From positions 1-43,689 of the IMG/VR virus record IMGVR_UViG_3300045988_038444: 43,689 nt of DNA; one strand, given 5' to 3'. Below the pieces are notes generated by a model that ran no database searches, was not told where the DNA came from, and worked only from the letters and a program-made list of their open reading frames with translations. The DNA comes from a virus (Duplodnaviria > Heunggongvirae > Uroviricota > Caudoviricetes). Every line of letters begins with the position of its first letter. The stretch's first letter is position 1. Of the stretch, positions 13,032-43,689 are shown one piece after another. The position numbers and the translations under genes were made by a program.

Positions 13032-13519
13032 GCGTTATTTAAGAGTAAGCCAGTATCAATAATTTCTTTAAGGTAACAAGCAGCATAATCACCCTGGCAT
13101 TTAGTGATTAACAATCGTGATGCCATTGCACAACGGTCGATTACCGGAACAGCTTGTAACTGTAAATCGACAGATCCTTTCCATCCTACAACAGAGGATG
13201 AAGGGTTACTGACAATCTGAACAACGTGTTCCTGAATCAAACCGTTCACAAACAGTTGCATCACAAACCGCTTACTACCTTCAGCGATTTCCAGATTATA
13301 AAAATCGTCCCACCACTGAAGCATCGCCGGACTATATAACTGAATTGTACACGATACCTGAGCAGGTCCACCAAAGGCGCTACGACCTAACCGTGATAAC
13401 GTCCCGGAAACATCAGATTTAGTTACACCCCACGGTGGGCTATAACTGTAATTATCACGCTCAGGTAACACCATTTTCGCGCCGTACTCAAGCCGTGGTA
13501 AATCATCTGTATTGCTCAT
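13016..13519 (-). CDS. Minor or distal tail protein (putative)
   Basis: 167-aa ORF immediately downstream of tape measure gene. Confidence 0.4.
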   Translation of the reverse strand: MSNTDDLPRLEYGAKMVLPERDNYSYSPPWGVTKSDVSGTLSRLGRSAFGGPAQVSCTIQLYSPAMLQWWDDFYNLEIAEGSKRFVMQLFVNGLIQEHVVQIVSNPSSSVVGWKGSVDLQLQAVPVIDRCAMASRLLITKCQGDYAACYLKEIIDTGLLLNNAWTPE

Positions 13520-16101
13520 TATATTTTCCTGTTCGCATCATAGTTAGACCTGAACGCTTTATTCGTCTGACTGTACGGGTCATTCCATTGTGCCGCTGAT
13601 TGTCGTGGGAATTCTTCACCTATGATAAGCACTACGTCATCCCGTGTTAATCCTTGTTTCACCTGAACACGTTCGCCACCGTAGTTATGAACCTGAATAT
13701 TAGGTGATGAACCACCTTCAGATCCGGGGGTGTATGTCCCACGATTCATTGCTTCCAGAGTGCTACGATAACGACTCGTAGCCTGTTTGGTACTGACAAA
13801 TTCACCATTACTCAAACGTGCGTTTATACTGTCACTCTGACCTGTACCCGGACCTTTAACATAACCACCCGTTGCAAAACCTGTTGCGGCCACAGACTGA
13901 ATGTTACCTAACACGCTTGTCCCGTATGATAAAGCCTGTGCAATGAACGGAATATTCGCCGGGAACGGCAACGCCATAGCCTGACTAACGGCTGTCCACA
14001 GGTTAATACTCGCCTGTGCGATACTAAAGGCTTTAGACAGTGCAAACATCGCTTTATATGCGTTTGATTGCTCACCTTTAGATTGTGCCAGACCAGCAGC
14101 CATTTGACCCAAAAAATCAGCACTGGATTGTAGCAACAAGCTGTAGTTAGCATTTGCAAGATTCATACGGGCTTGTTCCCCGGCCTGTTGAATCTGCGTT
14201 TTCATGTCCTGGTATTGTTGCTCGTTAATTAAATCTTGTTCACGGGCTTGTTGTATGACAGTAAGGCGTTGTGCTTCCTGTTGATTAACCTGATCAACCT
14301 GTGATTGATACGGGTTTAACTCACCCTGTACATCGGTTTGTACCTGTGAAACCTGACCAGCTAACTGTTGCGCCTGCTGTTGACGTTGCAATGCAGCCAC
14401 ATGTGCATCAACAGCGGCACGTTCAGCATCAGTCGCGTCTTTATTCAGTCGTGACTGTGCTTCTGCCTGTTGTGATGCCAGCGTTAACTGTTGACGTACC
14501 TGATATTCTTTCTGATATGTTGCTGTAAGTTGTTCAACAGACGACCCCTGTGTTAAGGCAATCTGAACCTGTTCACGGGCTAACTGAACATCATAATTAC
14601 CAGCATTGATTTTATCCTGAAGCGTTTTCAGGTATTTCTGGTTAGCAGCCTGATTACGTTCCAGTTCTTTCTGTGCACGTTTAGCCGCAGATGCTTCAGC
14701 ACTCGCTGATTTCTTCTGGTTTTTTTGATTTTCTTTATATTCTGCCTGTTGTTTCAACAACGCAGCATAGTCTGCAATCTGTTCCTTAGTTGCTTTATTA
14801 CCCAGTTTCTGACTTGCTGCCAGTTCATAGTTACCGTCAGCAAGCGCCTGGGTGTAGGTGATCTGTTCTTTCAGGTTTTTAATCTGTTTTTGTGCTTTCG
14901 CGTCTGATGCATTTGTCCCTTTTATAGAAATAGGTTTTGTAGCATCACGGTTTTTTTTAGCTTGTTCGTATCCAGCCGCAGATGCTTTAACAAATCTATC
15001 AACCTGGTCATTGTACGCTTTTGCATTATTTACATCATCGTTTGACCAGACCAGATCAGCAAGGGATGCCCCAGTAGCACCTGGTTGTAACTTAGATATT
15101 ACGCCAGCTATTGACCACAATTTATCAGCAGTTGTTGAATCATCGCCTAATTTATTGATGAAACCTGTAAGTGTATCAATAGCGTTTACAGCAAGATTTG
15201 ATGCTCCAGTCACGTCATTCATGCTTGCAACAAGCGTGGCTAACGATACAGATAACGAATTCGTAGCTTGATCTAAAGACCGTGGCAATTTGCTAAATTC
15301 TTCATCAACATTTTGCGTTTGACGAATAATAGCATTCAATGCTTGTTCCGCTGTGAGTTCACCATCCAGCATTTGCTGACGTAACTCACCCATTGAAACA
15401 CCTAAACCAGCAGCCATCTGTCTTGCCAGTTCTGGCATCTGTTCAACAATGCTGTTAAATTCTTCCGCACGAACTACACCAGATGAAATTGACTGACCAA
15501 ACTGACGTAATGCGTTAGACATTTCTTCAGCAGATGAACTACCAACACGACCTATTTTTTGAAGTGTTTCAGTTAATCGTAATATCTGATCGTTTGTTGC
15601 GCCGCTATCCTTTAATGACGATGATAAGGTTTCCCATAAACGTTCAGTATCAGCAAGACCACCACCTGTTTTAGAGGCAATATCCGCGAGTGTTTGAAAT
15701 GTTTGTTCGGCTGATGATGTACTCCCGGTCAATCTTGCAATACGAGCTTCGAGTTGATTAGCTGCATCACCCGCAACAATAAACGCTTTTCCTAACTCAA
15801 TAGCAGAAGACACCGCACCTATTGCCATAAAACCACGAACGGCGTTTGTTGCAAGATTTACGCCAGATGCCATCGACTTTAAAGATGATGTAGCGTTACC
15901 AGTATTTGACGCCATTACTTGTGCAGATTTTGCAGCTTGCTGTTCACTTTTTGATAAAGTGTTTGCCGCTTGTGCAGCAGATTTTGCAGAATTAGCTGTT
16001 TGGTCTAACTGGTTATTAAGGCTGTTAAGATTTCTGTCAGCGTTACCAGTGTCTATTTTTATATCAATCGGATACTGTGCCATTGTGGTTAACCTTTTCA
16101 C
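13519..16101 (-). CDS. Tail tape measure protein
   Basis: 860 aa, long low-complexity alpha-helical Q/A/E-rich sequence, downstream of tail chaperone genes. Confidence 0.75.
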   Translation of the reverse strand: MKRLTTMAQYPIDIKIDTGNADRNLNSLNNQLDQTANSAKSAAQAANTLSKSEQQAAKSAQVMASNTGNATSSLKSMASGVNLATNAVRGFMAIGAVSSAIELGKAFIVAGDAANQLEARIARLTGSTSSAEQTFQTLADIASKTGGGLADTERLWETLSSSLKDSGATNDQILRLTETLQKIGRVGSSSAEEMSNALRQFGQSISSGVVRAEEFNSIVEQMPELARQMAAGLGVSMGELRQQMLDGELTAEQALNAIIRQTQNVDEEFSKLPRSLDQATNSLSVSLATLVASMNDVTGASNLAVNAIDTLTGFINKLGDDSTTADKLWSIAGVISKLQPGATGASLADLVWSNDDVNNAKAYNDQVDRFVKASAAGYEQAKKNRDATKPISIKGTNASDAKAQKQIKNLKEQITYTQALADGNYELAASQKLGNKATKEQIADYAALLKQQAEYKENQKNQKKSASAEASAAKRAQKELERNQAANQKYLKTLQDKINAGNYDVQLAREQVQIALTQGSSVEQLTATYQKEYQVRQQLTLASQQAEAQSRLNKDATDAERAAVDAHVAALQRQQQAQQLAGQVSQVQTDVQGELNPYQSQVDQVNQQEAQRLTVIQQAREQDLINEQQYQDMKTQIQQAGEQARMNLANANYSLLLQSSADFLGQMAAGLAQSKGEQSNAYKAMFALSKAFSIAQASINLWTAVSQAMALPFPANIPFIAQALSYGTSVLGNIQSVAATGFATGGYVKGPGTGQSDSINARLSNGEFVSTKQATSRYRSTLEAMNRGTYTPGSEGGSSPNIQVHNYGGERVQVKQGLTRDDVVLIIGEEFPRQSAAQWNDPYSQTNKAFRSNYDANRKI

Positions 16102-16145
16102 GAAGCATATACACAGTTTAACACGGGTCTAAAAAGCGACAAACG

Positions 16146-16190
16146 TTTAAAATAATTCTTGACGGATTACACAATGATGTGTAACCTACA
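16146..16190 (+). promoter_or_regulatory. Conserved early promoter copy: A/T-rich UP-like tttaaaataattc, -35 TTGACG (16159-16164), 17-nt spacer, -10 taacct
   Basis: One of at least nine near-identical plus-strand copies of tttaaaataattcTTGAC. Confidence 0.7.
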
Positions 16191-16217
16191 ATCAACAAAA
16201 CAACGGAGAGTTACAAA

Positions 16218-16397
16218 ATGGCTACTTTCATCATTCTTTTCTTAATCGCTGCTGTATATCTGATCCCAGCACTCATCGCGATTAACGTTAAACATAAACA
16301 ACAAACAGCAATTATTTTACTTAACATCTTTGCGGGTTGGACATTCGTCGGTTGGTTAGGTGCGTTAATCTGGTCTGTGTTAAAAAGCGACAAATAA
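16218..16397 (+). CDS. Superinfection-immunity-like small membrane protein (59 aa)
   Basis: Below track cutoff. ggagag RBS; MATFIILFLIAAVYLIPALIAINVKHKQQTAIILLNIFAGWTFVGWLGALIWSVLKSDK matches my recollection of the Imm_superinfect family pattern. Confidence 0.55.
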   Translation: MATFIILFLIAAVYLIPALIAINVKHKQQTAIILLNIFAGWTFVGWLGALIWSVLKSDK

Positions 16398-16398
16398 G

Positions 16399-17310
16399 AT
16401 GAGTAGGAAACGTTTAACCACAGAAGAGTTTATCACGCGTGCCCGTGAAGTTCATGGGCACAAATACGATTACTCACTAGTGGAGTATTTGAATTGGCGC
16501 ACACCTGTGAAAATCATCTGTCCTATACATGGAGTGTTTGAACAAATTCCTAATAATCATTTAAAAGGACGCAAGTGTTTATTCTGTGCAGGAAATCAAC
16601 AATCAAATACCAATGAATTTATCACAAGGGGGCGCGAAGTTCATGGGGGTAAGTATGGTTATTCGTTGGTGAAATATAAAGACTCTCGGACCAAAGTGAA
16701 AATCATTTGTCCAATACACGGAATGTTTGAACAACGTCCATATAGTCACTTGCAGCAAAAAGCAGGTTGCCCACAATGTGCTTGGGAACAATTGTCTGAA
16801 CAAAGACGTTTATCCGCCGAAGAATTCATTACTCGTGCTCGCGAAGTTCACGGGGACCGTTACGACTATTCGTTGGTGGAGTATGTTAACAATTCCACCC
16901 CTGTAAAAATTATTTGTTCAGAACACGGTGTGTTTGAACAGACACCGGGCAATCACACATTTATGAAAGCTGGCTGTCCCCAGTGCGCTGAAACAGGTTT
17001 TAATCCGTCAGAACCCGGCACGTTATATGTACTCGCTGATGATAAACAGTATCCCACTCTGATTAAAATTGGTATTACAAACGACTTAAAACAGCGACTA
17101 CGACAACTACAACGACGAACTCCGCATCTTGTGGTTAAACTTGTATCGTATCCGTTCCCACATGGCGCTGACGCTTACAAACTGGAACAAGAGGTACACA
17201 AGGTCTTTCACGAACTTAATGCGCGTCTCAAAGGCTTTGACGGTGCTACAGAGTGGTTTAAATACTCTCCTGCAATCCTCGATTACATAAATGAAAAAGC
17301 CCGGAACTAA
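16399..17310 (+). CDS. T5orf172-domain (GIY-YIG-like) protein with three N-terminal zinc-ribbon-like repeats; homing-endonuclease-like
   Basis: Three ~60-aa repeats EEFITRAREVHGxKYDYSLVEY...PVKIICPIHGVFEQ...GCPQC; C-terminal YVL...KIGIT...TEWF matches the T5orf172 pattern. Confidence 0.65.
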   Translation: MSRKRLTTEEFITRAREVHGHKYDYSLVEYLNWRTPVKIICPIHGVFEQIPNNHLKGRKCLFCAGNQQSNTNEFITRGREVHGGKYGYSLVKYKDSRTKVKIICPIHGMFEQRPYSHLQQKAGCPQCAWEQLSEQRRLSAEEFITRAREVHGDRYDYSLVEYVNNSTPVKIICSEHGVFEQTPGNHTFMKAGCPQCAETGFNPSEPGTLYVLADDKQYPTLIKIGITNDLKQRLRQLQRRTPHLVVKLVSYPFPHGADAYKLEQEVHKVFHELNARLKGFDGATEWFKYSPAILDYINEKARN

Positions 17311-17330
17311 CCGGGCTTATGTTTATTTTT
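17299..17330. terminator. Rho-independent terminator (gcccgg-aactaa-ccgggc plus T-rich tail)
   Basis: Hairpin overlaps the stop codons of convergent genes 16399..17310 and 17307..17591. Confidence 0.55.
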
Positions 17331-18025
17331 CTTCATCTCGACAACACGTGCAGACCGCAATGCTGTTAACAATTTCCATAGGAACTGTACATCAACGTTG
17401 TACACCCGTGCGTAACGTTCACAGGCAACCCAATCACTATTTATCAAATCAAGATAAGCATACCAATAAAAAACAGCATCAGGTCGCAATTCAGGACGTT
17501 TCTGTACAACAACCGGAACAGATATACCACGTGCAGCCGCCCCTTGTGTAACCCAGTCCAGGTCGTCCCCGTCTGTCTTATCGTTCCACAAGAGGAAGTC
17601 GATCAGTTTTTTTCAATCTGTTTTTCCCATTCGTCCTGGAAGAATGCGGAATTAATTGCGAACTGAATAACACGGCTGTAGATCACCTGACCAAAACGTT
17701 CATCACTTAACAATTCAATAGCTTCTTCGACACTGAATGGTTCCGGTTTGTCATCTTCACCAATCAGTTTCCAGTCCAGCATAAGAACGTTAGCCACAAA
17801 CTTAACACCTTCTGGTGTATATTCCTGATTCCACAGTTTTTCAAAGAAGTTTTCAGACAACACACCGTTCTGTTTTACATAGTCCGCGACTGTTACGTTA
17901 TATACCTGGTTAGCGGTGTTCAGGTTCAACACGGTGATACTGAAATTTTCATTTAAAATCAGTTCAGCAGAAGACTTCAGCACCAGTGGAGAAAGTGCTT
18001 TTTTCAGATGGTCAAACTTTGACAT
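17307..18025 (-). CDS. Tail assembly chaperone fusion (GT-like) made by -1 programmed frameshift
   Basis: Minus-strand GAAAAAAAC with heptamer A_AAA_AAC at 17606-17612 just before the G stop; the -1 frame continues KKLIDFLLWNDKTDGDD..., matching track ORF 17307..17591. Confidence 0.55.
17603..18025 (-). CDS. Tail assembly chaperone (G-like)
   Basis: 140-aa acidic protein immediately upstream of a slippery run and the overlapping T-like ORF. Confidence 0.6.
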   Translation of the reverse strand: MSKFDHLKKALSPLVLKSSAELILNENFSITVLNLNTANQVYNVTVADYVKQNGVLSENFFEKLWNQEYTPEGVKFVANVLMLDWKLIGEDDKPEPFSVEEAIELLSDERFGQVIYSRVIQFAINSAFFQDEWEKQIEKN

Positions 18026-18091: not shown

Positions 18092-18136
18092 TTTAAAATA
18101 ATTCTTGACGAATTACATCTGTTAAGGTATCTTTAA
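18092..18136 (+). promoter_or_regulatory. Conserved early promoter copy (-35 TTGACG 18105-18110, -10 tatctt)
   Basis: gatttaaaataattcttgacgaattaca. Confidence 0.7.
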
Positions 18137-18165
18137 CTCAACGAAACGAACTGAGGGTAAGAGGG

Positions 18166-18486
18166 ATGGCGATTATTAACATGGGTTGGCATAGTTCTGT
18201 TTTTGAAGGAAATGTTAAACTCCTGGAAGGGGCATATAGTCCTATCCATCGTAATGATATTGGTGGCGATTACCCACCATCTTATTTTCTATACGAAACT
18301 GATCATGGGTGCTGTATCAAAGAACGTGAACGTAACGGTTACCATGATTCAGATTTTGAAATGTTAATATGGAACCCTGAAACAAAAAAGCGCTTCATGG
18401 TATACATTTGCAACTACCCGTGGTTGGTGTTATCCATGCTATGGTTCACGCCCAGATGCAACACCAGAAGTTTTAGAAGCATATAA
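18166..18486 (+). CDS. Hypothetical protein (frame-1 part of a possibly frame-split gene)
   Basis: 106-aa ORF after the promoter; an overlapping frame-2 ORF continues to 18790. Confidence 0.4.
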   Translation: MAIINMGWHSSVFEGNVKLLEGAYSPIHRNDIGGDYPPSYFLYETDHGCCIKERERNGYHDSDFEMLIWNPETKKRFMVYICNYPWLVLSMLWFTPRCNTRSFRSI

Positions 18487-18839: not shown

Positions 18840-20297
18840 TCATGCTGTAGGCAGATATGGGAACAAGCTGAACCCAATCATAAAACCGATCGACTCTTCT
18901 TCGTGGGCGTTACCGCTAACAGTGACTTTCACTTTTTCGCCCGTCACAAGGTTTTTGGAACCGTCGCCCAGTGTCATCGCAGGAATGTTAACCACGATTG
19001 CACCGTCACCGTTTACCCCGGCAAGTTCGAAGTTGACTGTTGCGTTGTTACGGATCGCAGCCAGTACAGCACCGTCTGTCATCACCGTTTCAGTTTCCAT
19101 TGTGATTTCCAGGTTACCGATGTTGGTAAACGCAGCACCCATCACGCCCAGCACGTTTTCACCTGACACGTTGTTATTCACGGTGACAGTAACGTCTTTC
19201 AGGAACGTACTGAGTCCACTATCATCGATCCCGGTCAGTCGTACACGGTTCAGGTTCGTTACGGTGTTGTACGCTTCGTTAGCCACGAATTCAACATACC
19301 CGGAACCCGGCAGCGCGGTTTCTGACGGTGCTGATAAATCCTGTGCTACAAACGTCAGATCCATTGTCATTTTTTCAGTCAACGGTGCGTTGATCGTCAT
19401 CTGGTTTGCAGCTACAGCACGCGCATATTCATAAATAACAGGTGTCGTGTTGTAACGTACTTCCATTGTGTATTCAGTTTTAACGAACTCTGCAGAGTCA
19501 ACAGGAACGTTTCGAACAAAACTGGAAACAAATAAACGTACAGTTTTACCCGTACCTTCTTCAGTGGTGAATTCACTGTTAGCGAGAGTCAGAATATGAT
19601 CACCAACCATAGTCACACGGGCCATTTTACTGGTTACGGACTGTGTTAGACCATCAATATAAACATACTGTCCCGGTACTAAACCCAGTGTGGAAAAATC
19701 CAGGGTGGTAGACGTCAACTGACCATTACTGTTAACAGCGATTTCACCAGACGCTGCAGCATGCCCCACGAGATATAAACGAGCTTCAGCAGGCGGTGAC
19801 GCTTCGGCACTAAGCCCTGACACGTTGATAGCAGTAGTGGTACTATCAGCGCCTACAGTTTTCAAACCGTTGTTTGCAGCCAGTGTAAAACCTGTCGCAT
19901 AAACAAGAGCACCTTTAGGTAATGCCGCATCAAGAGTAGTAACGTTATAAGCATCAGCGCCAACACTGGTAACGTCAATATCAATTGCACCAGCACCGAC
20001 CCATTTACTATAAAGGAATCCGTCACCCCAGTAGCGGAACGTATCAAGTGTCAGGTCTGTCTGAAAGCCCGGTGCAACTTCAACGTTAGTTACCGTGCCT
20101 TTACGTGCAGATCGGTCCGTACTGATCGGTGTACGCTGAGTCTTTGTAATATCAGCACTGTAAGAACTGATTTCATTCGGTTGTTGAACCGTCCAGGGTG
20201 TACCAAAAACAGGTTCACAGACTTTTGCCACACTGAGTCGTGTTGCGTTTACATCAGTCGCAGGTGTTTGCGAACATTTAAAAATTGATTCAGCCAT
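18840..20297 (-). CDS. Major tail protein (putative)
   Basis: 485-aa Thr/Val/Gly-rich beta-type ORF upstream of the chaperones and followed by a terminator; assignment by position. Confidence 0.5.
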   Translation of the reverse strand: MAESIFKCSQTPATDVNATRLSVAKVCEPVFGTPWTVQQPNEISSYSADITKTQRTPISTDRSARKGTVTNVEVAPGFQTDLTLDTFRYWGDGFLYSKWVGAGAIDIDVTSVGADAYNVTTLDAALPKGALVYATGFTLAANNGLKTVGADSTTTAINVSGLSAEASPPAEARLYLVGHAAASGEIAVNSNGQLTSTTLDFSTLGLVPGQYVYIDGLTQSVTSKMARVTMVGDHILTLANSEFTTEEGTGKTVRLFVSSFVRNVPVDSAEFVKTEYTMEVRYNTTPVIYEYARAVAANQMTINAPLTEKMTMDLTFVAQDLSAPSETALPGSGYVEFVANEAYNTVTNLNRVRLTGIDDSGLSTFLKDVTVTVNNNVSGENVLGVMGAAFTNIGNLEITMETETVMTDGAVLAAIRNNATVNFELAGVNGDGAIVVNIPAMTLGDGSKNLVTGEKVKVTVSGNAHEEESIGFMIGFSLFPYLPTA

Positions 20298-20759: not shown

Positions 20760-21181
20760 TGATTAAACCTCACCATTATTCCGGCTTTTAATATAGCACG
20801 TTCGACAAACCCGGAAGGTGTCTGTGTACTGCTACCACCATTGAGAACCCCAATGTAAGGAACGTTGTTAGTAATATGCAGTTCCTGACCATTAACTTTA
20901 ATACTGCTGATAGTGACTGTATCCTGTTCGATACGTGCTTTACTGGCTTCAACATTACCTGTTGGTGTATCAGGACTATTAGCGGGTTGCCCCTGATCGA
21001 ACCACCAGTTGTTGCTTGCCCAGCCACTCAATATTGGTGTACCATCAGGAGGCTCACTTATGAGTATGTTACGTAGTGTTAAAACATATCTAATGACTTG
21101 ACGATCCGTAAAATCTTGTAAGTCGGCTTTTATGTCTTTAAACACTCCAGTAATACGATTTATATCATTGATTTTGCTAGT
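20756..21181 (-). CDS. Head-tail joining protein (putative)
   Basis: Track ORF 20756..21250; start moved to internal Met 21181 (MTSKINDINR...) because the 5' extension collides with the divergent plus gene. Confidence 0.35.
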   Translation of the reverse strand, partial: TSKINDINRITGVFKDIKADLQDFTDRQVIRYVLTLRNILISEPPDGTPILSGWASNNWWFDQGQPANSPDTPTGNVEASKARIEQDTVTISSIKVNGQELHITNNVPYIGVLNGGSSTQTPSGFVERAILKAGIMVRFNQ

Positions 21182-21206
21182 CATTGACAAACCTAAAGGT
21201 AGAAAA

Positions 21207-22103
21207 ATGGGCGGTAAAAGACTAACCAAAGAACAACTAGAGCATAACATAAAAGATATTTGTCAATCAAAAAATTACAAATTTATAAAATGGAAAGACG
21301 GGTTTAAAAACAAAGAATCACGAATTATTTTATCTTGTGTTACACACGGGGAATGGGACACTAAATGTTATCATTTTTTGAATGGTTCTGGTTGTCCGAT
21401 CTGTGGTGGAACACGAACCACAAAAGGGTTAAGAATTGCACAGATTAAAGACAGTTTAACAAATTCTAAATCAAAGTTTATTAAATTTAAAACTAATTTT
21501 CAAAATGGAAATTCTGTTTGTTTGCTGAGCTGTATTGATCATGGTGGATGGGAGACAACAGTCAATAGACTAATCTTTACATCTGTTGATTGCCCGTTGT
21601 GTATAACGAATAGACAGAAAACTAAACAAGAACGAGAAATTGAAATAACAAATAGATGTAAAGAAACAGGGTTGTTTTTTAATAAGATATTCGACGAACA
21701 TCCGACATGGAAATCTAAAATATCATTAAAGTGTTCAACGCATGGTGATTTTGTTACAACAATTAATTCTTTTCTTAGTAAACAAAAAGGTTGTCCAAAC
21801 TGTAGTAAAACAGGGTTTAAAGCTGGTAAGTATGCAACACTTTATGTCTTGCGGTCCACATGCGGTCGTTACGTTAAAATAGGTATCAGTAATTGTGTAG
21901 AGCAAAGAATTAATACACTTCGTAGAAAAACACCATTTGATTTTCAAGTAATAGAAAAATTGAATGGACACGGGGCAACCATTCGTTCACTTGAAAAAGA
22001 TTTTCATTCTCATTTTGAATCTGCAGGATTAACCGGGTTCGATGGTTGTACAGAGTGGTTAAAATGGAATCCAAATATAACCACTCTGATACGGATGTTA
22101 TAG
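21207..22103 (+). CDS. T5orf172-domain (GIY-YIG-like) protein with zinc-ribbon-like repeats, second copy
   Basis: Start taken at ATG 21207 (MGGKRLTKEQ...). Repeats with HG...GCPxC modules and C-terminal TLYVL...VKIGIS...TEWLKW. Confidence 0.65.
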   Translation: MGGKRLTKEQLEHNIKDICQSKNYKFIKWKDGFKNKESRIILSCVTHGEWDTKCYHFLNGSGCPICGGTRTTKGLRIAQIKDSLTNSKSKFIKFKTNFQNGNSVCLLSCIDHGGWETTVNRLIFTSVDCPLCITNRQKTKQEREIEITNRCKETGLFFNKIFDEHPTWKSKISLKCSTHGDFVTTINSFLSKQKGCPNCSKTGFKAGKYATLYVLRSTCGRYVKIGISNCVEQRINTLRRKTPFDFQVIEKLNGHGATIRSLEKDFHSHFESAGLTGFDGCTEWLKWNPNITTLIRML

Positions 22104-22481
22104 TTATACCGCTCCAACAGGATGAATAAATGCCATATCATCCCCTAACAATCGTGGGTTTTGACGATCAAGAAGGCGATATTCTTTACCACGTTCATCA
22201 ACCACAACATCACCCCGATCAGGAACAAATCGTGGTTCAAAACTCTGACTATCCATAATTACCATCGTTGTGGTTATTCTGGTCATAGTAGTCGGATCCC
22301 ACTTTTCTAATGGGTAAATATAACCACGACACGTATGCGATTCAGTAACGGTTGTACCCGGTAATGTAGGATTAGACGGGTTGGGAACTGTTATCACACG
22401 TTTTACCGTCAAATCCTCACCTACTTCAGCAAGTGCACGAGTAACACCTTTCAGGACACTTTGACGTTTGTCTGCCATCAC
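22104..22481 (-). CDS. Head-tail connector / head completion protein (putative)
   Basis: 125-aa ORF, position. Confidence 0.35.
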   Translation of the reverse strand: MMADKRQSVLKGVTRALAEVGEDLTVKRVITVPNPSNPTLPGTTVTESHTCRGYIYPLEKWDPTTMTRITTTMVIMDSQSFEPRFVPDRGDVVVDERGKEYRLLDRQNPRLLGDDMAFIHPVGAV

Positions 22482-26568: not shown

Positions 26569-26978
26569 TATTCCACATCCTCATAATATGCAGTTCCACC
26601 GATACTATATCCCGTATATTCACCAGTCTGAAACTTTTTCAAAACTTCGTCATCAGTTATCAACGTACCAACAATGACGCCTGTCTGATCCAGTTTATCA
26701 ACCAGTCCAAAACTTGCTGCAATGTCTTCGGTCATCGGGAACGCAAACACAACTTTCCCAACAGGTTGTTGATTATGCATATTATCCATGATGCGCTGAT
26801 CAGAATTCATGAAGTCCAACCATGCTTTCAGAGTGACATCCTCGGGAAATTGCTCGTTGTCCGTGTCTGTGTAAATTTCTAACTGACCTGTCTCCTGATT
26901 ACGTTTTTTACAGATACTACCCCAACCGAATACCATACGTAGTGAGTTGTCAACCTTATTAACTTTTACGTTAATCAC
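26568..26978 (-). CDS. Hypothetical head-module protein
   Basis: 136-aa ORF in the head gene block. Confidence 0.35.
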   Translation of the reverse strand: MINVKVNKVDNSLRMVFGWGSICKKRNQETGQLEIYTDTDNEQFPEDVTLKAWLDFMNSDQRIMDNMHNQQPVGKVVFAFPMTEDIAASFGLVDKLDQTGVIVGTLITDDEVLKKFQTGEYTGYSIGGTAYYEDVE

Positions 26979-27385
26979 GGGGATTGTCCTCGTATTGTTT
27001 CAACATGACTAAATTCTAACATTTCGGATGAATAATTGCACTGGTGATACACGCTGTTTACAACGTTACCGAATATCTCAGAAAGATTCTTGATCGGTTC
27101 AACAGCAGTCGTTACTGGTTCAACAGCAGTCGTTACTGGTTCAACAGTAGTCGTTACCGGTTCAACAGTAGTCGTTACCGGTTCAACAGCAGTCGTTACT
27201 GGTTCAACAGCGTCCAGATGTTCAGCGACAACCTGGAAAAACACTGTGTTAGTTTCACGGTCAATAATAACCACTGTGCTGGAACTATCTTCAACAATGC
27301 TGAATGAGTAGTCGTAACGATCACCGTGAATTTTACGGGCGCGACGAATGAATTCGTCTGTAGCAACTCTGATGTTCGGATCCAT
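26975..27385 (-). CDS. Repeat protein: N-terminal KYDYS module followed by six VEPVTT(A/T) heptad repeats
   Basis: Start taken at ATG 27385 (MDPNIRVATDEFIRRARKIHGDRYDYS...); the N-terminal module matches the repeat unit of the T5orf172 genes. Confidence 0.5.
   Translation of the reverse strand: MDPNIRVATDEFIRRARKIHGDRYDYSFSIVEDSSSTVVIIDRETNTVFFQVVAEHLDAVEPVTTAVEPVTTTVEPVTTTVEPVTTAVEPVTTAVEPIKNLSEIFGNVVNSVYHQCNYSSEMLEFSHVETIRGQSP
27105..27218 (-). repeat. Coding tandem repeat, 21-bp unit (ttcaacagcagtcgttactgg on the plus strand), about 5.5 copies
   Basis: Direct repeats visible at 27105-27218; encode VEPVTTA heptads on the minus strand. Confidence 0.85.
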
Positions 27386-27411
27386 ACATTCAACCCTTCT
27401 TGTTCTCTTAA

Positions 27412-27456
27412 CCACAGGGTAGTTGTGTCGGTGTAATCCGTCAAGAATTATTTTGC
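27412..27456 (-). promoter_or_regulatory. Inverted copy of the conserved early promoter, reading leftward
   Basis: Plus gtaatccgtcaagaattatttt is the reverse complement of aaaataattcttgacggattac; downstream leader nearly matches the plus copy at 27742. Confidence 0.6.
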
Positions 27457-27526: not shown

Positions 27527-27640
27527 ACTTATACTACTCTTCTATTTATCTATGTTTATTATGTTTTCTATAAAAAGATAACAAAAAGAATAAGATAGAG
27601 AGGGGTTGGTTAAAAAGTAAACATGACGAAATATATGAAT
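27527..27640. repeat. Conserved ~110-bp noncoding element, copy A (core 27567-27632)
   Basis: Core tctataaaaagataacaaaaagaataagatagagaggggttggttaaaaagtaaacatgacgaaat recurs at 42643-42708 with 4 mismatches in 66 nt. Confidence 0.8.
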
Positions 27641-28876: not shown

Positions 28877-29114
28877 TCGCTATGGGAATGAAACAAATAT
28901 GGGATGGTAAAACCTTCCTTCTGTTGGTTGTGAAGTATTGATCCATCTGGCAAGCATTAACAAGTGGGTGGCACGAACTGTTCAGGGTTATGAAATATGG
29001 CCTTCTGTTTATGAAAATGATACGGCACATCACAGGGTAAACATAAAATTTGAAGATAATGTTCGTCTGTTATGTGATGTGCGACCTCTTGACTGGCGTG
29101 AACCTGATTAACTT

Positions 29115-29176
29115 GGTTCGATGGCTGTACTGAGTGGTTAAAATGGAATCCAAATATAACCACTCTAATACGTATA
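29115..29176 (+). pseudogene. Remnant of the 3' end of a T5orf172-type gene
   Basis: ggttcgatggctgtactgagtggttaaaatggaatccaaatataaccactctaatacg is near-identical to 22038-22095 (end of gene 21207..22103); encodes FDGCTEWLKWNPNITTLIR but has an in-frame TGA at 29105-29107 just upstream. Confidence 0.6.
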
Positions 29177-32249: not shown

Positions 32250-32494
32250 CGATATTTAAAAACTCAATGGGCGATACTGTCGCGTATCTACCGAAAGTCA
32301 TTATTGCAGATCCATCCTGTGTTGATTACCCACACTGCAAGCAATCTGAAGCGACCTACAACGACCTGTGCGCTGATATTATGCGTGGTTGTGACATCGG
32401 TATTGAACGACTTCAGAAACTGCGGGAGGAATACGAAAAACGGTCTGTTCAGGCAGCAATGGGTTTACCGCCTGTATACGATAATTTAAAATAA
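32246..32494 (+). CDS. Hypothetical protein
   Basis: 82-aa ORF whose stop lies inside the next promoter copy. Confidence 0.4.
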   Translation: MTIFKNSMGDTVAYLPKVIIADPSCVDYPHCKQSEATYNDLCADIMRGCDIGIERLQKLREEYEKRSVQAAMGLPPVYDNLK

Positions 32495-42602: not shown

Positions 42603-42712
42603 TCTATACTACTTCTTCTTTATATCTATGTTTTCTATGTTATCTATAAAAAGATAATAAAAAGAATAAGATAGAGAAGGGTCGGTTAAAAAATAAACAT
42701 GACGAAATCTAT
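42603..42712. repeat. Conserved ~110-bp noncoding element, copy B (core 42643-42708)
   Basis: Matches 27527-27640; core 62 of 66 nt identical. Confidence 0.8.
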
Positions 42713-42729
42713 GTTAAGTATAACTTTAA

Positions 42730-42938: not shown

Positions 42939-43689
42939 ATGATAATGAAAAAGAACCTTTTAGACGAATTAATAGATTTAAAAGGCGGGGTACAAAACGC
43001 TGTTGAATACCTTAATCGTCGAGGTGTTAAGGTGACTGTTGGTCGTTACAACCAATGGTTAAGCGGTAGGTTTCATCCTAAATATGAAACGATCAGTATT
43101 ATTCTTGAAGAGATTACTGACTTCACACTGTCACCCTTGCCAGTACAACATTCTGACGAAAACATTGTTCTTAAACACACAATACCGGTTACCGAACTGC
43201 GTCAGAAATTACCACACAGACGTTTTGCTAATAACTACTGGCAACGTGTCAGATACGTTGATTCACAGATCCTGGAAGCTGTTCACGGTCACGACGTGTG
43301 GACACGGTTTGAGGCGATGTGTGGTAATTTTGAATGTGCAAGATATGTGCTACGCAGAAATTTAAACGAACACACAATTACTGACAGTTGGATTCAAAAT
43401 GGTTTGCGCCGGGGATGGATCCCGGAATGTGTAAACGTAATGGTCGATTTGCTTGAAAAATACGAAGGCACCGGGACACCGTTTAACGTAATGGTTTGTG
43501 AACCACCTGTATCACGAGTGGAACCACCTGTATCACGAGTGGAAGCACCTGTATCACGAGTGGAACCACCTGTATCACGAGTGGAAGCACCTGTAGCACG
43601 AGTTGAAGCACCTGTAGCACGATTTGAACCGCCTGTAGTCGATGTCAGCGATTTGAAGGAGAAAATCAGACTGTATGCGTTATCACACA
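42939..43689 (+). CDS. 5' part of an XRE-type HTH protein with Pro-rich heptad repeats (3' end beyond the window edge)
   Basis: ATG 42939 after aagaaggg; open to the last base of the window, so absent from the track; NAVEYLNRRGVKVTVGRYNQWLSG is HTH-like; C-terminus is (E[PA]PV[SA]RV)x6. Confidence 0.55.
   Translation, partial: MIMKKNLLDELIDLKGGVQNAVEYLNRRGVKVTVGRYNQWLSGRFHPKYETISIILEEITDFTLSPLPVQHSDENIVLKHTIPVTELRQKLPHRRFANNYWQRVRYVDSQILEAVHGHDVWTRFEAMCGNFECARYVLRRNLNEHTITDSWIQNGLRRGWIPECVNVMVDLLEKYEGTGTPFNVMVCEPPVSRVEPPVSRVEAPVSRVEPPVSRVEAPVARVEAPVARFEPPVVDVSDLKEKIRLYALSH
43500..43640 (+). repeat. Coding tandem repeat, 21-bp unit gaaccacctgtatcacgagtg with variants, about 6.5 copies
   Basis: Direct repeats visible; encode EPPVSRV / EAPVARV heptads. 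Confidence 0.85.

Follow-up and report, generated by a model that had tools for sequence, protein, structure and literature searches.

An Imm-like gene and a T5orf172 endonuclease gene share a polymorphic insert between the tail chaperone and tape measure genes of a Sasha-like phage

Introduction

Why do two plus-strand genes lie between the minus-strand tail chaperone and tape measure protein (TMP) genes of a virulent siphophage, and why are they found there together? The phage, which is 9NA/Sasha-like (Sashavirus/Nonanavirus), is represented by the IMG/VR record IMGVR_UViG_3300045988_038444, whose complete 43,689 nucleotides are referred to here as the window; its nearest database records, Sashavirus BDX09P1 and 536P12 and the Escherichia phages KarinMuster_Bas82 (Bas82) and PJ16, are 90-94% identical to it across the query region. 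The first of the two genes, imm (16218-16397, +), codes for a 59-aa protein matching PF14373 (Imm_superinfect), and the second (16399-17310, +) codes for a 303-aa protein with zinc-ribbon repeats and a T5orf172 domain, as in a free-standing homing-endonuclease gene (HEG). The reading that is favored here, with modest confidence, is that an early-expressed superinfection-exclusion gene has become linked to such a HEG. An initial annotation had proposed a moron or a homing-endonuclease-driven insertion with a superinfection-exclusion function, and this proposal fits the findings described below, in which the first product appears as a minimal member of the T4 Imm family and one junction is shared by different flanking haplotypes. 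The insert reveals no new kind of system and is an ordinary example of known phage accessory elements: both protein families, the position of HK97 gene 15 and the endonuclease architecture have been described already, and the GenBank relatives annotate both genes.

The insert and the empty site

The two plus-strand ORFs are indeed present, as the initial annotation had it, as an opposite-strand unit between the gene of tail chaperone T (17307-17591, -; frameshift product, phrog_8233) on the right and the TMP gene (13519-16101, -; 860 aa; PF20155 TMP_3, E 2.5e-52) on the left. Further to the right are the genes of tail chaperone G (17603-18025, -; phrog_8233) and of the tail tube (18840-20297, -); the chaperone frameshift is annotated in Sasha, 9NA and AVIO78A. 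The assumption that the chaperone and TMP genes are normally adjacent was borne out by the synteny comparison, in which the chaperone-TMP spacer is 71 bp in all eight relatives without the insert (Sasha, Solent, Sergei, PDP46, AVIO78A, 9NA and two IMG/VR contigs). The gene content at this site therefore varies among close relatives, and both ORFs match known families strongly, as described in the next two sections.

The junction alignments with Sasha, PDP46 and AVIO78A place the inserted DNA at 16126-~17287 (+; ~1162 bp), replacing 9 bp (TTAACCATA) of the empty site, instead of the limits 16146-17335 that had been proposed. When the junctions are marked by slashes, the empty site reads ...CAGTTTAACACG/TTAACCATA/ATATATGAAAAAGCCCGG... 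and the occupied site reads ...CAGTTTAACACG/GGTCTAAAAAGCGAC...CTCGATTAC/ATAAATGAAAAAGCCCGG.... The description of the unit as self-contained holds for its promoter but not for its 3' end. The bidirectional intrinsic terminator hairpin (17297-17318; AAGCCCGG-AACTAA-CCGGGCTT), which had been counted as part of the cassette, occurs at the same place in the empty-site phages and thus belongs to the backbone; a terminator is also annotated in the chaperone-TMP spacer of the Sasha record. The loop of this hairpin holds the stop codons of both convergent ORFs, those of the endonuclease and of chaperone T, and the endonuclease ORF extends 23 nt into the backbone, from which its last 7-8 codons and its stop codon are taken. 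Because the terminator and the final endonuclease codons are backbone sequence, the insert is not fully self-contained. When compared with a moron in the sense of Juhala and Hendrix, the insert lies between two genes that are adjacent in related phages and has the promoter within it, whereas the terminator was there beforehand; a distinct base composition is not found relative to the neighbors, the GC content being 0.36-0.45 over the insert and 0.41-0.47 in the flanks, with slightly lower values only at the promoter and imm.

A 14-nt direct repeat, TAAAAAGCGACAAA, is present at 16130-16143 and 16381-16394 (+), the right copy being the last imm codons, and this pair encloses exactly the promoter and imm. 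In Bas82, the same G-to-A substitution is seen in both copies. The repeat could have been left behind when imm inserted separately into an older insert that had only the endonuclease, could result from gene conversion, or could be bound by a protein. A repeat-deleted allele would read GGTCTAAAAAGCGACAAATAAGATG.

The imm product as a minimal T4 Imm family member

The 59-codon ORF had been described as resembling superinfection-immunity proteins, and the HMM searches agree with this: its product matches PF14373 over the full model (positions 1-42) with an E value of 3.4e-17 and 62.5 bits (cut-off 27.9), and phrog_1039, "immunity to superinfection", with an E value of 1.6e-18. It had also been called unannotated, but it is annotated in GenBank relatives (Bas82_0048, PJ16_056). 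On the same Pfam model, T4 Imm scores 58.2 bits, and in a pairwise BLASTP comparison, the two proteins share 28% identity over 47 aa (E 9e-8). Residues P17, W41, W46 and W52 align with P26, W50, W55 and W61 of T4 Imm. The protein consists of two hydrophobic helices linked by the segment NVKHKQQ, which is the bare core of the family, and by its sequence, it is a minimal member of the T4 Imm family, predicted to form an inner-membrane hairpin.

T4 Imm is reported in a 2026 preprint to bind the helical-bundle domain of the T4 tape measure protein, with exclusion weakened by W50A and R33A (bioRxiv 10.64898/2026.03.06.709160). Given the homology with T4 Imm and the position, which is that of HK97 gp15, imm most likely functions in exclusion at the step of genome entry, and the protein probably excludes the genome entry of secondary phages. 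The reading frame is intact in all 12 genomes that have the cassette.

The nearest homologues outside the clade are those of the Skate-like phages (45-48% identity), where the gene belongs to a moron of four opposite-strand genes that separates the tail tube gene from the chaperone genes; imm homologues recur in opposite-strand tail-module morons of unrelated siphophages. No closer donor was found in phage records, IMG/VR and metagenome contigs, the next best matches there having 45-61% identity. It was considered whether imm is an unusually young, recently swept segment, as pS is low (0.0145), yet the total nucleotide diversity (pi ~0.02) is at the backbone level of chaperone G, and the idea in this form is not supported. 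A 60-codon ORF (16211-16393, -) is antisense to almost all of imm, sharing its strand with the late tail genes, and is probably a by-product of the hydrophobic codon usage of imm.

The endonuclease

The second ORF had been described as T5orf172/GIY-YIG-like, and this is in agreement with its matches to PF10544 T5orf172 (E 4.4e-13, 50 bits, cut-off 20), PF13455 (MUG113; 47 bits, cut-off 22.3) and phrog_681, "endonuclease" (E 5e-85), while PF01541, the GIY-YIG family proper, is not matched at E <= 0.1. Its start codon is 1 nt past the imm stop codon and has no obvious Shine-Dalgarno sequence of its own. Three stretches match PF05265 DUF723 (E 3.9e-17), with weaker matches to DUF4379 and CapR; these correspond to three 150-nt repeats (16410-16559, 16599-16748 and 16806-16955, +), each of which encodes a CxxH...CxxC zinc ribbon of the CapR/DUF723/DUF4379 type, a DNA-binding module. 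The T5orf172 nuclease domain, which belongs to the GIY-YIG superfamily, follows at 17011-17289 (+; residues ~205-297), and it models as the GIY-YIG alpha/beta catalytic fold. In an alignment of 29 homologues, the zinc-ribbon residues C41/H44/C60/C63, C104/H107/C124/C127 and C173/H176/C193/C196 are invariant or nearly so; in the nuclease domain, Y210, K223, G225, E263 and E285 are invariant, and R233, N228 and H267 are at least 90% conserved.

The diversity among 10 genomes differs along the insert. The promoter, imm and the first ~50 nt of the endonuclease gene are at the backbone level (pi 0.016-0.06), the zinc-ribbon repeats (16450-17000) are the hypervariable part (pi 0.15-0.36), and the nuclease domain has an intermediate diversity (pi 0.07-0.11) with a pN/pS of 0.15 at a pS of 0.21. 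For chaperone G, which is the backbone reference, pi is ~0.01-0.04 and pN/pS is 0.04 at a pS of 0.09. Clearly, purifying selection acts on the nuclease domain. From genome to genome, the zinc-ribbon modules have been shuffled, and the alleles recombine; for example, the allele of the IMG/VR contig is window-like in its 5' part and Bas82-like in its 3' part. In PJ16, ~209 bp have been lost by recombination between repeats and the protein is truncated at 203 aa; in BDX09P1, it is truncated at 213 aa, with an intact counterpart in contig L064. In contig L039, the endonuclease gene is split, and this may be an assembly error because the TMP gene of this contig is split as well.

A promoter of a resident family

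The promoter and 5' leader (16146-16208, +) have an A/T-rich upstream element (TTTAAAATAATTC), a -35 box, TTGACG (16159-16164), and a -10 box, TAACCT (16182-16187), with a 17-nt spacer that holds the palindrome TTACACA-N4-TGTGTAA; the ribosome-binding site (RBS) of imm, GGAG, is at 16205-16208. A simple sigma-70 scan did not call this promoter. That it is nevertheless real, as had been proposed, follows from the ~10 paralogous copies in the window of the conserved element TTTAAAATAATTCTTGAC(G/A)... (11 matches, 0 expected), in every one of which TAnnnT occurs exactly 17 nt past the -35 box and an RBS and ORF are found 55-75 nt downstream. The copies (TTTAAAATAATTCTTGACGGATTACA, then TAnnnT) start at 16146, 18092, 27742, 31334, 32485, 34708, 38127, 39489 and 41337 on the plus strand and at ~27445 on the minus strand, and one of them drives the dUTPase gene. 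The imm promoter, with leader and RBS, matches the copy at 32485 with 92% identity over 63 nt, and in contig L039, the identity with this copy is 98%. The resemblance with the resident copies shows that the cassette uses the resident promoter type.

The promoter copies precede clusters of small genes on the strand opposite to the virion genes, and such plus-strand clusters interrupt the minus-strand virion genes. This organization has been noted before for 9NA (PMC4153490) and is also seen in the annotation of Bas82. The family is probably the early/middle regulon of this phage group, and it can be inferred that the imm cassette is probably expressed early or middle from a promoter of the host sigma-70 type.

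Distribution of the insert among related phages

The insert is polymorphic at one site, being present in 12 genomes, the window included, and absent from eight with intact empty alleles. The other 11 carriers are Bas82, PJ16, BDX09P1, 536P12, one IMG/VR contig, the metagenome contig CYGL01001368.1 and five NCBI/ENA metagenome contigs. All carriers have the insert at the same chaperone/TMP junction; the junctions are identical in the nine other carrier loci whose sequence was examined, and for L065 and L068, the match rests on the gene map or on BLAST coordinates. No imm-only intermediate is found at this site among the 12 genomes, and no endonuclease-only intermediate either.

The flanks do not separate carriers from non-carriers, and flanking segments mix both classes. 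For positions 13519-14400, the window, BDX09P1 and the IMG/VR contig group with the cassette-less AVIO78A, and Bas82 and PJ16 group with the cassette-less Sasha and PDP46. On the right side, insert-linked single-nucleotide polymorphisms reach only ~50-80 bp, splitting carriers and non-carriers as 7/7 versus 5/5 at 17290, 7/7 versus 4/5 at 17341 and 6/7 versus 5/5 at 17366. One junction in several flanking backgrounds implies that the insert behaves as a discrete unit that is placed or retained at one site. This flank incongruence is consistent with homing, but it is not proof of it.

On the left side, the window has a divergent TMP 5' module (14891-16125, -), of which 14891-15919 is without nucleotide homology to the Sasha-type TMP gene and 15920-16125 is ~75% identical to it. 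Its closest protein relatives are Skate-like TMPs (57-58%), and no closer donor was found in phage records, IMG/VR and metagenome contigs (next best 55-58%). In the first six genomes, this module and the insert looked perfectly linked, as if they were obligatorily transferred together, but the metagenome genomes broke the linkage: L039, L066 and L068 have a Sasha-type TMP gene up to the junction plus the insert, and L067 has the insert plus a chimeric TMP gene. The carriers thus have three TMP 5' configurations.

The N-terminal half of the TMP (14891-15919, codons ~62-404) is a swappable module in Sasha-like phages, with two types and the L067 chimera. Similarly, the Skate-like phages (L009-L011) have three unrelated TMP N-terminal halves on similar C-terminal halves. 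Both for Imm and for the TMP 5' module, the nearest outside relatives are found in the Skate-like phages, and a cognate pairing of Imm and TMP alleles was considered. This pairing is not supported, as the Skate-like phages keep 92-95% identical Imm proteins alongside unrelated TMP N-terminal halves, and imm is absent from the vicinity of the similar TMP module in 15 IMG/VR loci.

Possible explanations of the linkage

The findings can be brought together in the following way. The two genes would form an accessory operon, transcribed from a copy of the phage-type promoter and ending at the pre-existing bidirectional chaperone/TMP terminator, in which the endonuclease appears to be translationally coupled to imm. 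By homology, Imm would make the infected cell refractory to the genome entry of later related phages. In a mixed infection, the endonuclease would cut the cassette-less allele near the chaperone/TMP spacer, and recombinational repair would copy the insert in, with imm carried along. The payoff of the linkage, as we infer, could be twofold: a carrier that infects first shuts rivals out, and a carrier that arrives second enters cells infected by cassette-less phages, which have no Imm, and converts them. The endonuclease is, by a slight preponderance, probably a still-active or recently active homing enzyme behind the spread of the insert.

Several observations weigh against this explanation. 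The pN/pS of imm is ~1.6, with 8 conservative replacements and 1-2 synonymous changes, and no purifying selection is detectable; because the substitutions are few and nearly all of them are conservative replacements, constraint on imm is not demonstrable at this depth. R33 of T4 Imm, which aligns with V24, is not conserved, the N-terminal helix and the C-terminal tail of T4 Imm are absent, and the study of the interaction of T4 Imm with its TMP is a preprint. The endonuclease is disrupted in two of the 12 genomes and possibly in a third, and it combines hypervariable DNA-binding repeats with a constant insertion site, which is not as the simple model of one enzyme and one site predicts for homing. 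Such a hypervariable array agrees either with the arms race envisaged by Barth et al. or with a target that is not the insertion site. In addition, Imm reduces the co-infections that homing requires, and ordinary homologous recombination in mosaic phages, without a nuclease, could give the same presence/absence pattern.

The most probable alternative is a passive moron, which is possible but rather unlikely. Here, imm would be the sole selected gene, spread by ordinary homologous recombination, and the endonuclease would be a decaying or inactive passenger that is no longer homing at this site or never was. Such a passenger is hard to reconcile with a nuclease domain that has a pN/pS of 0.15 and invariant catalytic-type residues, and with the lack of an imm-only insert at the site among the 12 genomes; moreover, paralogous endonucleases occupy other polymorphic intergenic sites beside essential genes, as active HEGs would. 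The truncations in PJ16 and BDX09P1 and the split gene in L039, next to an imm gene that is never broken, do agree with it. So do the high mosaicism of these phages, in which any marker would appear in several flanking haplotypes, the generality of opposite-strand small-gene clusters with the same promoter in the group (PMC4153490), and the Skate-like phages, which have imm in a tail-module moron without an adjacent endonuclease.

A second alternative concerns the 59-aa protein, which might be a small membrane protein that has the PF14373 hairpin but serves another role, for example, in membrane physiology or the timing of lysis. The Pfam model is only 42 residues long and largely hydrophobic, T4 Imm is its only characterized member, and the low identity with T4 Imm, the absent terminal extensions and the mostly non-synonymous substitutions within the population would be accommodated in this way. 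This role is quite improbable when it is considered that the HMM score exceeds the curated cut-off more than twofold, that the equivalent of T4 W50 and the Pro/Trp pattern are kept, that homologues recur in opposite-strand tail-module morons, and that the TMP-adjacent position mirrors that of HK97 gp15.

A stronger version of the exclusion-and-homing reading can also be formulated, in which the insert acts against its own kin: Imm would bar cassette-less relatives via their incoming TMP from cells where a carrier came first, the endonuclease would convert them where a carrier came second, and the two genes would drive each other through the population. This extension is unlikely; if it were true, the swaps of the TMP N-terminal half would be an escape from Imm, the hypervariable repeats would be an escape from cleavage, and the 14-nt repeat would be a sign that imm, separately mobile, was added later to an endonuclease insert that was already there.

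The least probable alternative, which we consider very unlikely, is that the endonuclease is primarily a weapon that cuts the genomes of competitor phages or satellites at variable targets (marker exclusion, like SegG or ICP1 Odn), or a CapR-like repressor, forming a competitor-exclusion module together with Imm: hypervariable repeats at a fixed site, as if targets change in an arms race, the co-option of T5orf172/CapR proteins as an anti-satellite nuclease and a transcriptional repressor (PMC10448857, PMC8096241) and a 14-nt repeat that co-varies in Bas82 and could be a binding site would agree with it, but no target is identified, the architecture and the presence/absence polymorphism equally fit a classical free-standing HEG, and the conserved catalytic residues speak against a pure repressor.

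Related endonucleases and other features of the window

A second T5orf172 endonuclease gene, coding for three CapR modules and a T5orf172 domain (phrog_681, E 4e-64), is present at 21207-22103 (+; listed ORF 21132-22103), between the Neck1 gene (20756-~21187, -) and a gene at 22104-22481 (-). This insert is found in none of 16 database relatives, and its nearest DNA match is 81% identical over 222 nt (Klebsiella phage KP13-27). A 70-nt segment at 29106-29175, just before a head morphogenesis gene, is 91% identical to the 3' end of this endonuclease gene (22027-22096); it has no intact ORF and appears to be the remnant of an endonuclease gene that has decayed. Another Sasha-like genome has an endonuclease paralogue, 68% identical, that adjoins the portal gene. 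The paralogue unique to the window, the 3'-end relic and the portal-adjacent copy show that this endonuclease family is mobile and turning over in the phage group. The 298-aa gp46 of 9NA (L007, 6579-7475, +), which is on the opposite strand between the major tail gene and gp45, has about the size of these endonucleases and takes up a further intergenic site in the tail module. A 146-aa ORF (26975-27415, -), preceded by a conserved promoter copy at ~27433-27453 (-), opens with half a CapR/DUF723-type motif (DEFIRRARKIHGDRYDYSFS) without the zinc-binding cysteines, after which a 21-nt unit that encodes (A/T)VEPVTT is repeated in tandem six times (27067-27231); possibly, a piece of an endonuclease DNA-binding module has been joined here to a repeat protein.

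A further opposite-strand insert with the same promoter type (18092-18486, +) is found between the chaperone G and tail tube genes. Its ORF (18166-18486, 106 aa) aligns with no more than the initial 76 positions of phrog_30881, which in Sasha gp43 has 207 aa; in relatives, the gene codes for 207, 87 or 55 aa or is absent, and this insert is a variable and, it seems, decaying moron. A 100-nt A/T-rich segment occurs in two copies (27538-27637 and 42614-42713), 90% identical and ~15 kb apart, the first being just upstream of the divergent promoter region near 27.4-27.8 kb. Tandem repeats of 30-nt units (CCTGTAGCAGCGCCTACACCAGCGGCAGCA) and 21-nt units (GAACCACCTGTATCACGAGTG) are present at the ends of the window, at 1-117 and 43479-43646.

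Comparison with known systems

The 12 carriers and eight non-carriers form a tractable set, with cultured E. coli phages among the carriers (Bas82, PJ16) as well as among the non-carriers (PDP46, AVIO78A), and this set could bear on T5orf172 homing, on siphophage exclusion by a 59-aa Imm and on the action of Imm on TMP outside T4. For phage cocktails, it implies that some Sasha-like phages may exclude or convert their relatives. The BASEL-collection paper that describes Bas82 does not discuss this locus.

The endonuclease is best compared with CapR of PLE (PMC8096241) and with the T5orf172 HEGs of ICP1-like and other phages (Barth et al. 2023, PMC10448857), which have repeated CapR/DUF723/DUF4397 fingers, undergo recombination between these repeats and lie at boundaries of genetic exchange beside essential genes. 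The window endonuclease has the same arrangement of repeated zinc-ribbon modules and a C-terminal T5orf172 domain beside essential structural genes, and the deletion of repeats within the gene, the shuffling of modules and the boundary of sequence exchange are also preserved. It differs in lineage, which is Sashavirus/Nonanavirus, and in its immediate cargo, which is an accessory exclusion gene instead of essential genes. The locus is not a HEG island as defined by Barth et al. 2023, where at least two HEGs bracket the cargo: one endonuclease is present at the locus, 3.9 kb separate it from the next (that at 21207-22103), and the insert also occurs without the linked TMP 5' module. When compared with the GIY-YIG HEGs I-TevI and the Seg proteins of T4, the nuclease domain is C-terminal instead of N-terminal, the DNA-binding modules are treble-clef zinc ribbons in triplicate, and there is no PF01541 match at the sequence level.

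The imm product and T4 Imm belong to the same Pfam family with comparable scores, and the hydrophobic hairpin core, the proline and three tryptophans, including the W50 equivalent, are kept; a block of the genome entry of secondary phages and probably an early expression would be expected by analogy. The window protein is shorter (59 versus 83 aa), and its gene is part of the tail module of a siphophage, where it lies directly upstream of the TMP gene and is co-transcribed with the endonuclease gene. In the Skatevirus-like phages (Skate, SeSz-2, Bas77), imm is also within the tail module on the strand opposite to the tail genes, but there, the tail tube and chaperone genes are separated by four small genes, of which imm is one, and no endonuclease gene adjoins it.

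With respect to position, the closest counterpart is HK97 gene 15, the archetypal moron, which lies between the chaperone and TMP genes (Juhala 2000; Cumby 2012; PMC3594210) and codes for a small inner-membrane protein that stops DNA from entering, in dependence on the tail, with the tail/TMP implicated as its target (PMC3594210). Both have the same chaperone-TMP position and both are absent from close relatives. The HK97 gp15 protein is YebO-like, with a single transmembrane helix, and is unrelated to the imm family; HK97 is temperate, its gene 15 is expressed from the prophage and has no endonuclease partner, whereas the window insert borrows the terminator of the backbone. The insert would be a natural case in which a selfish nuclease gene is physically coupled to an accessory gene of benefit to the phage, at the original moron position of HK97.

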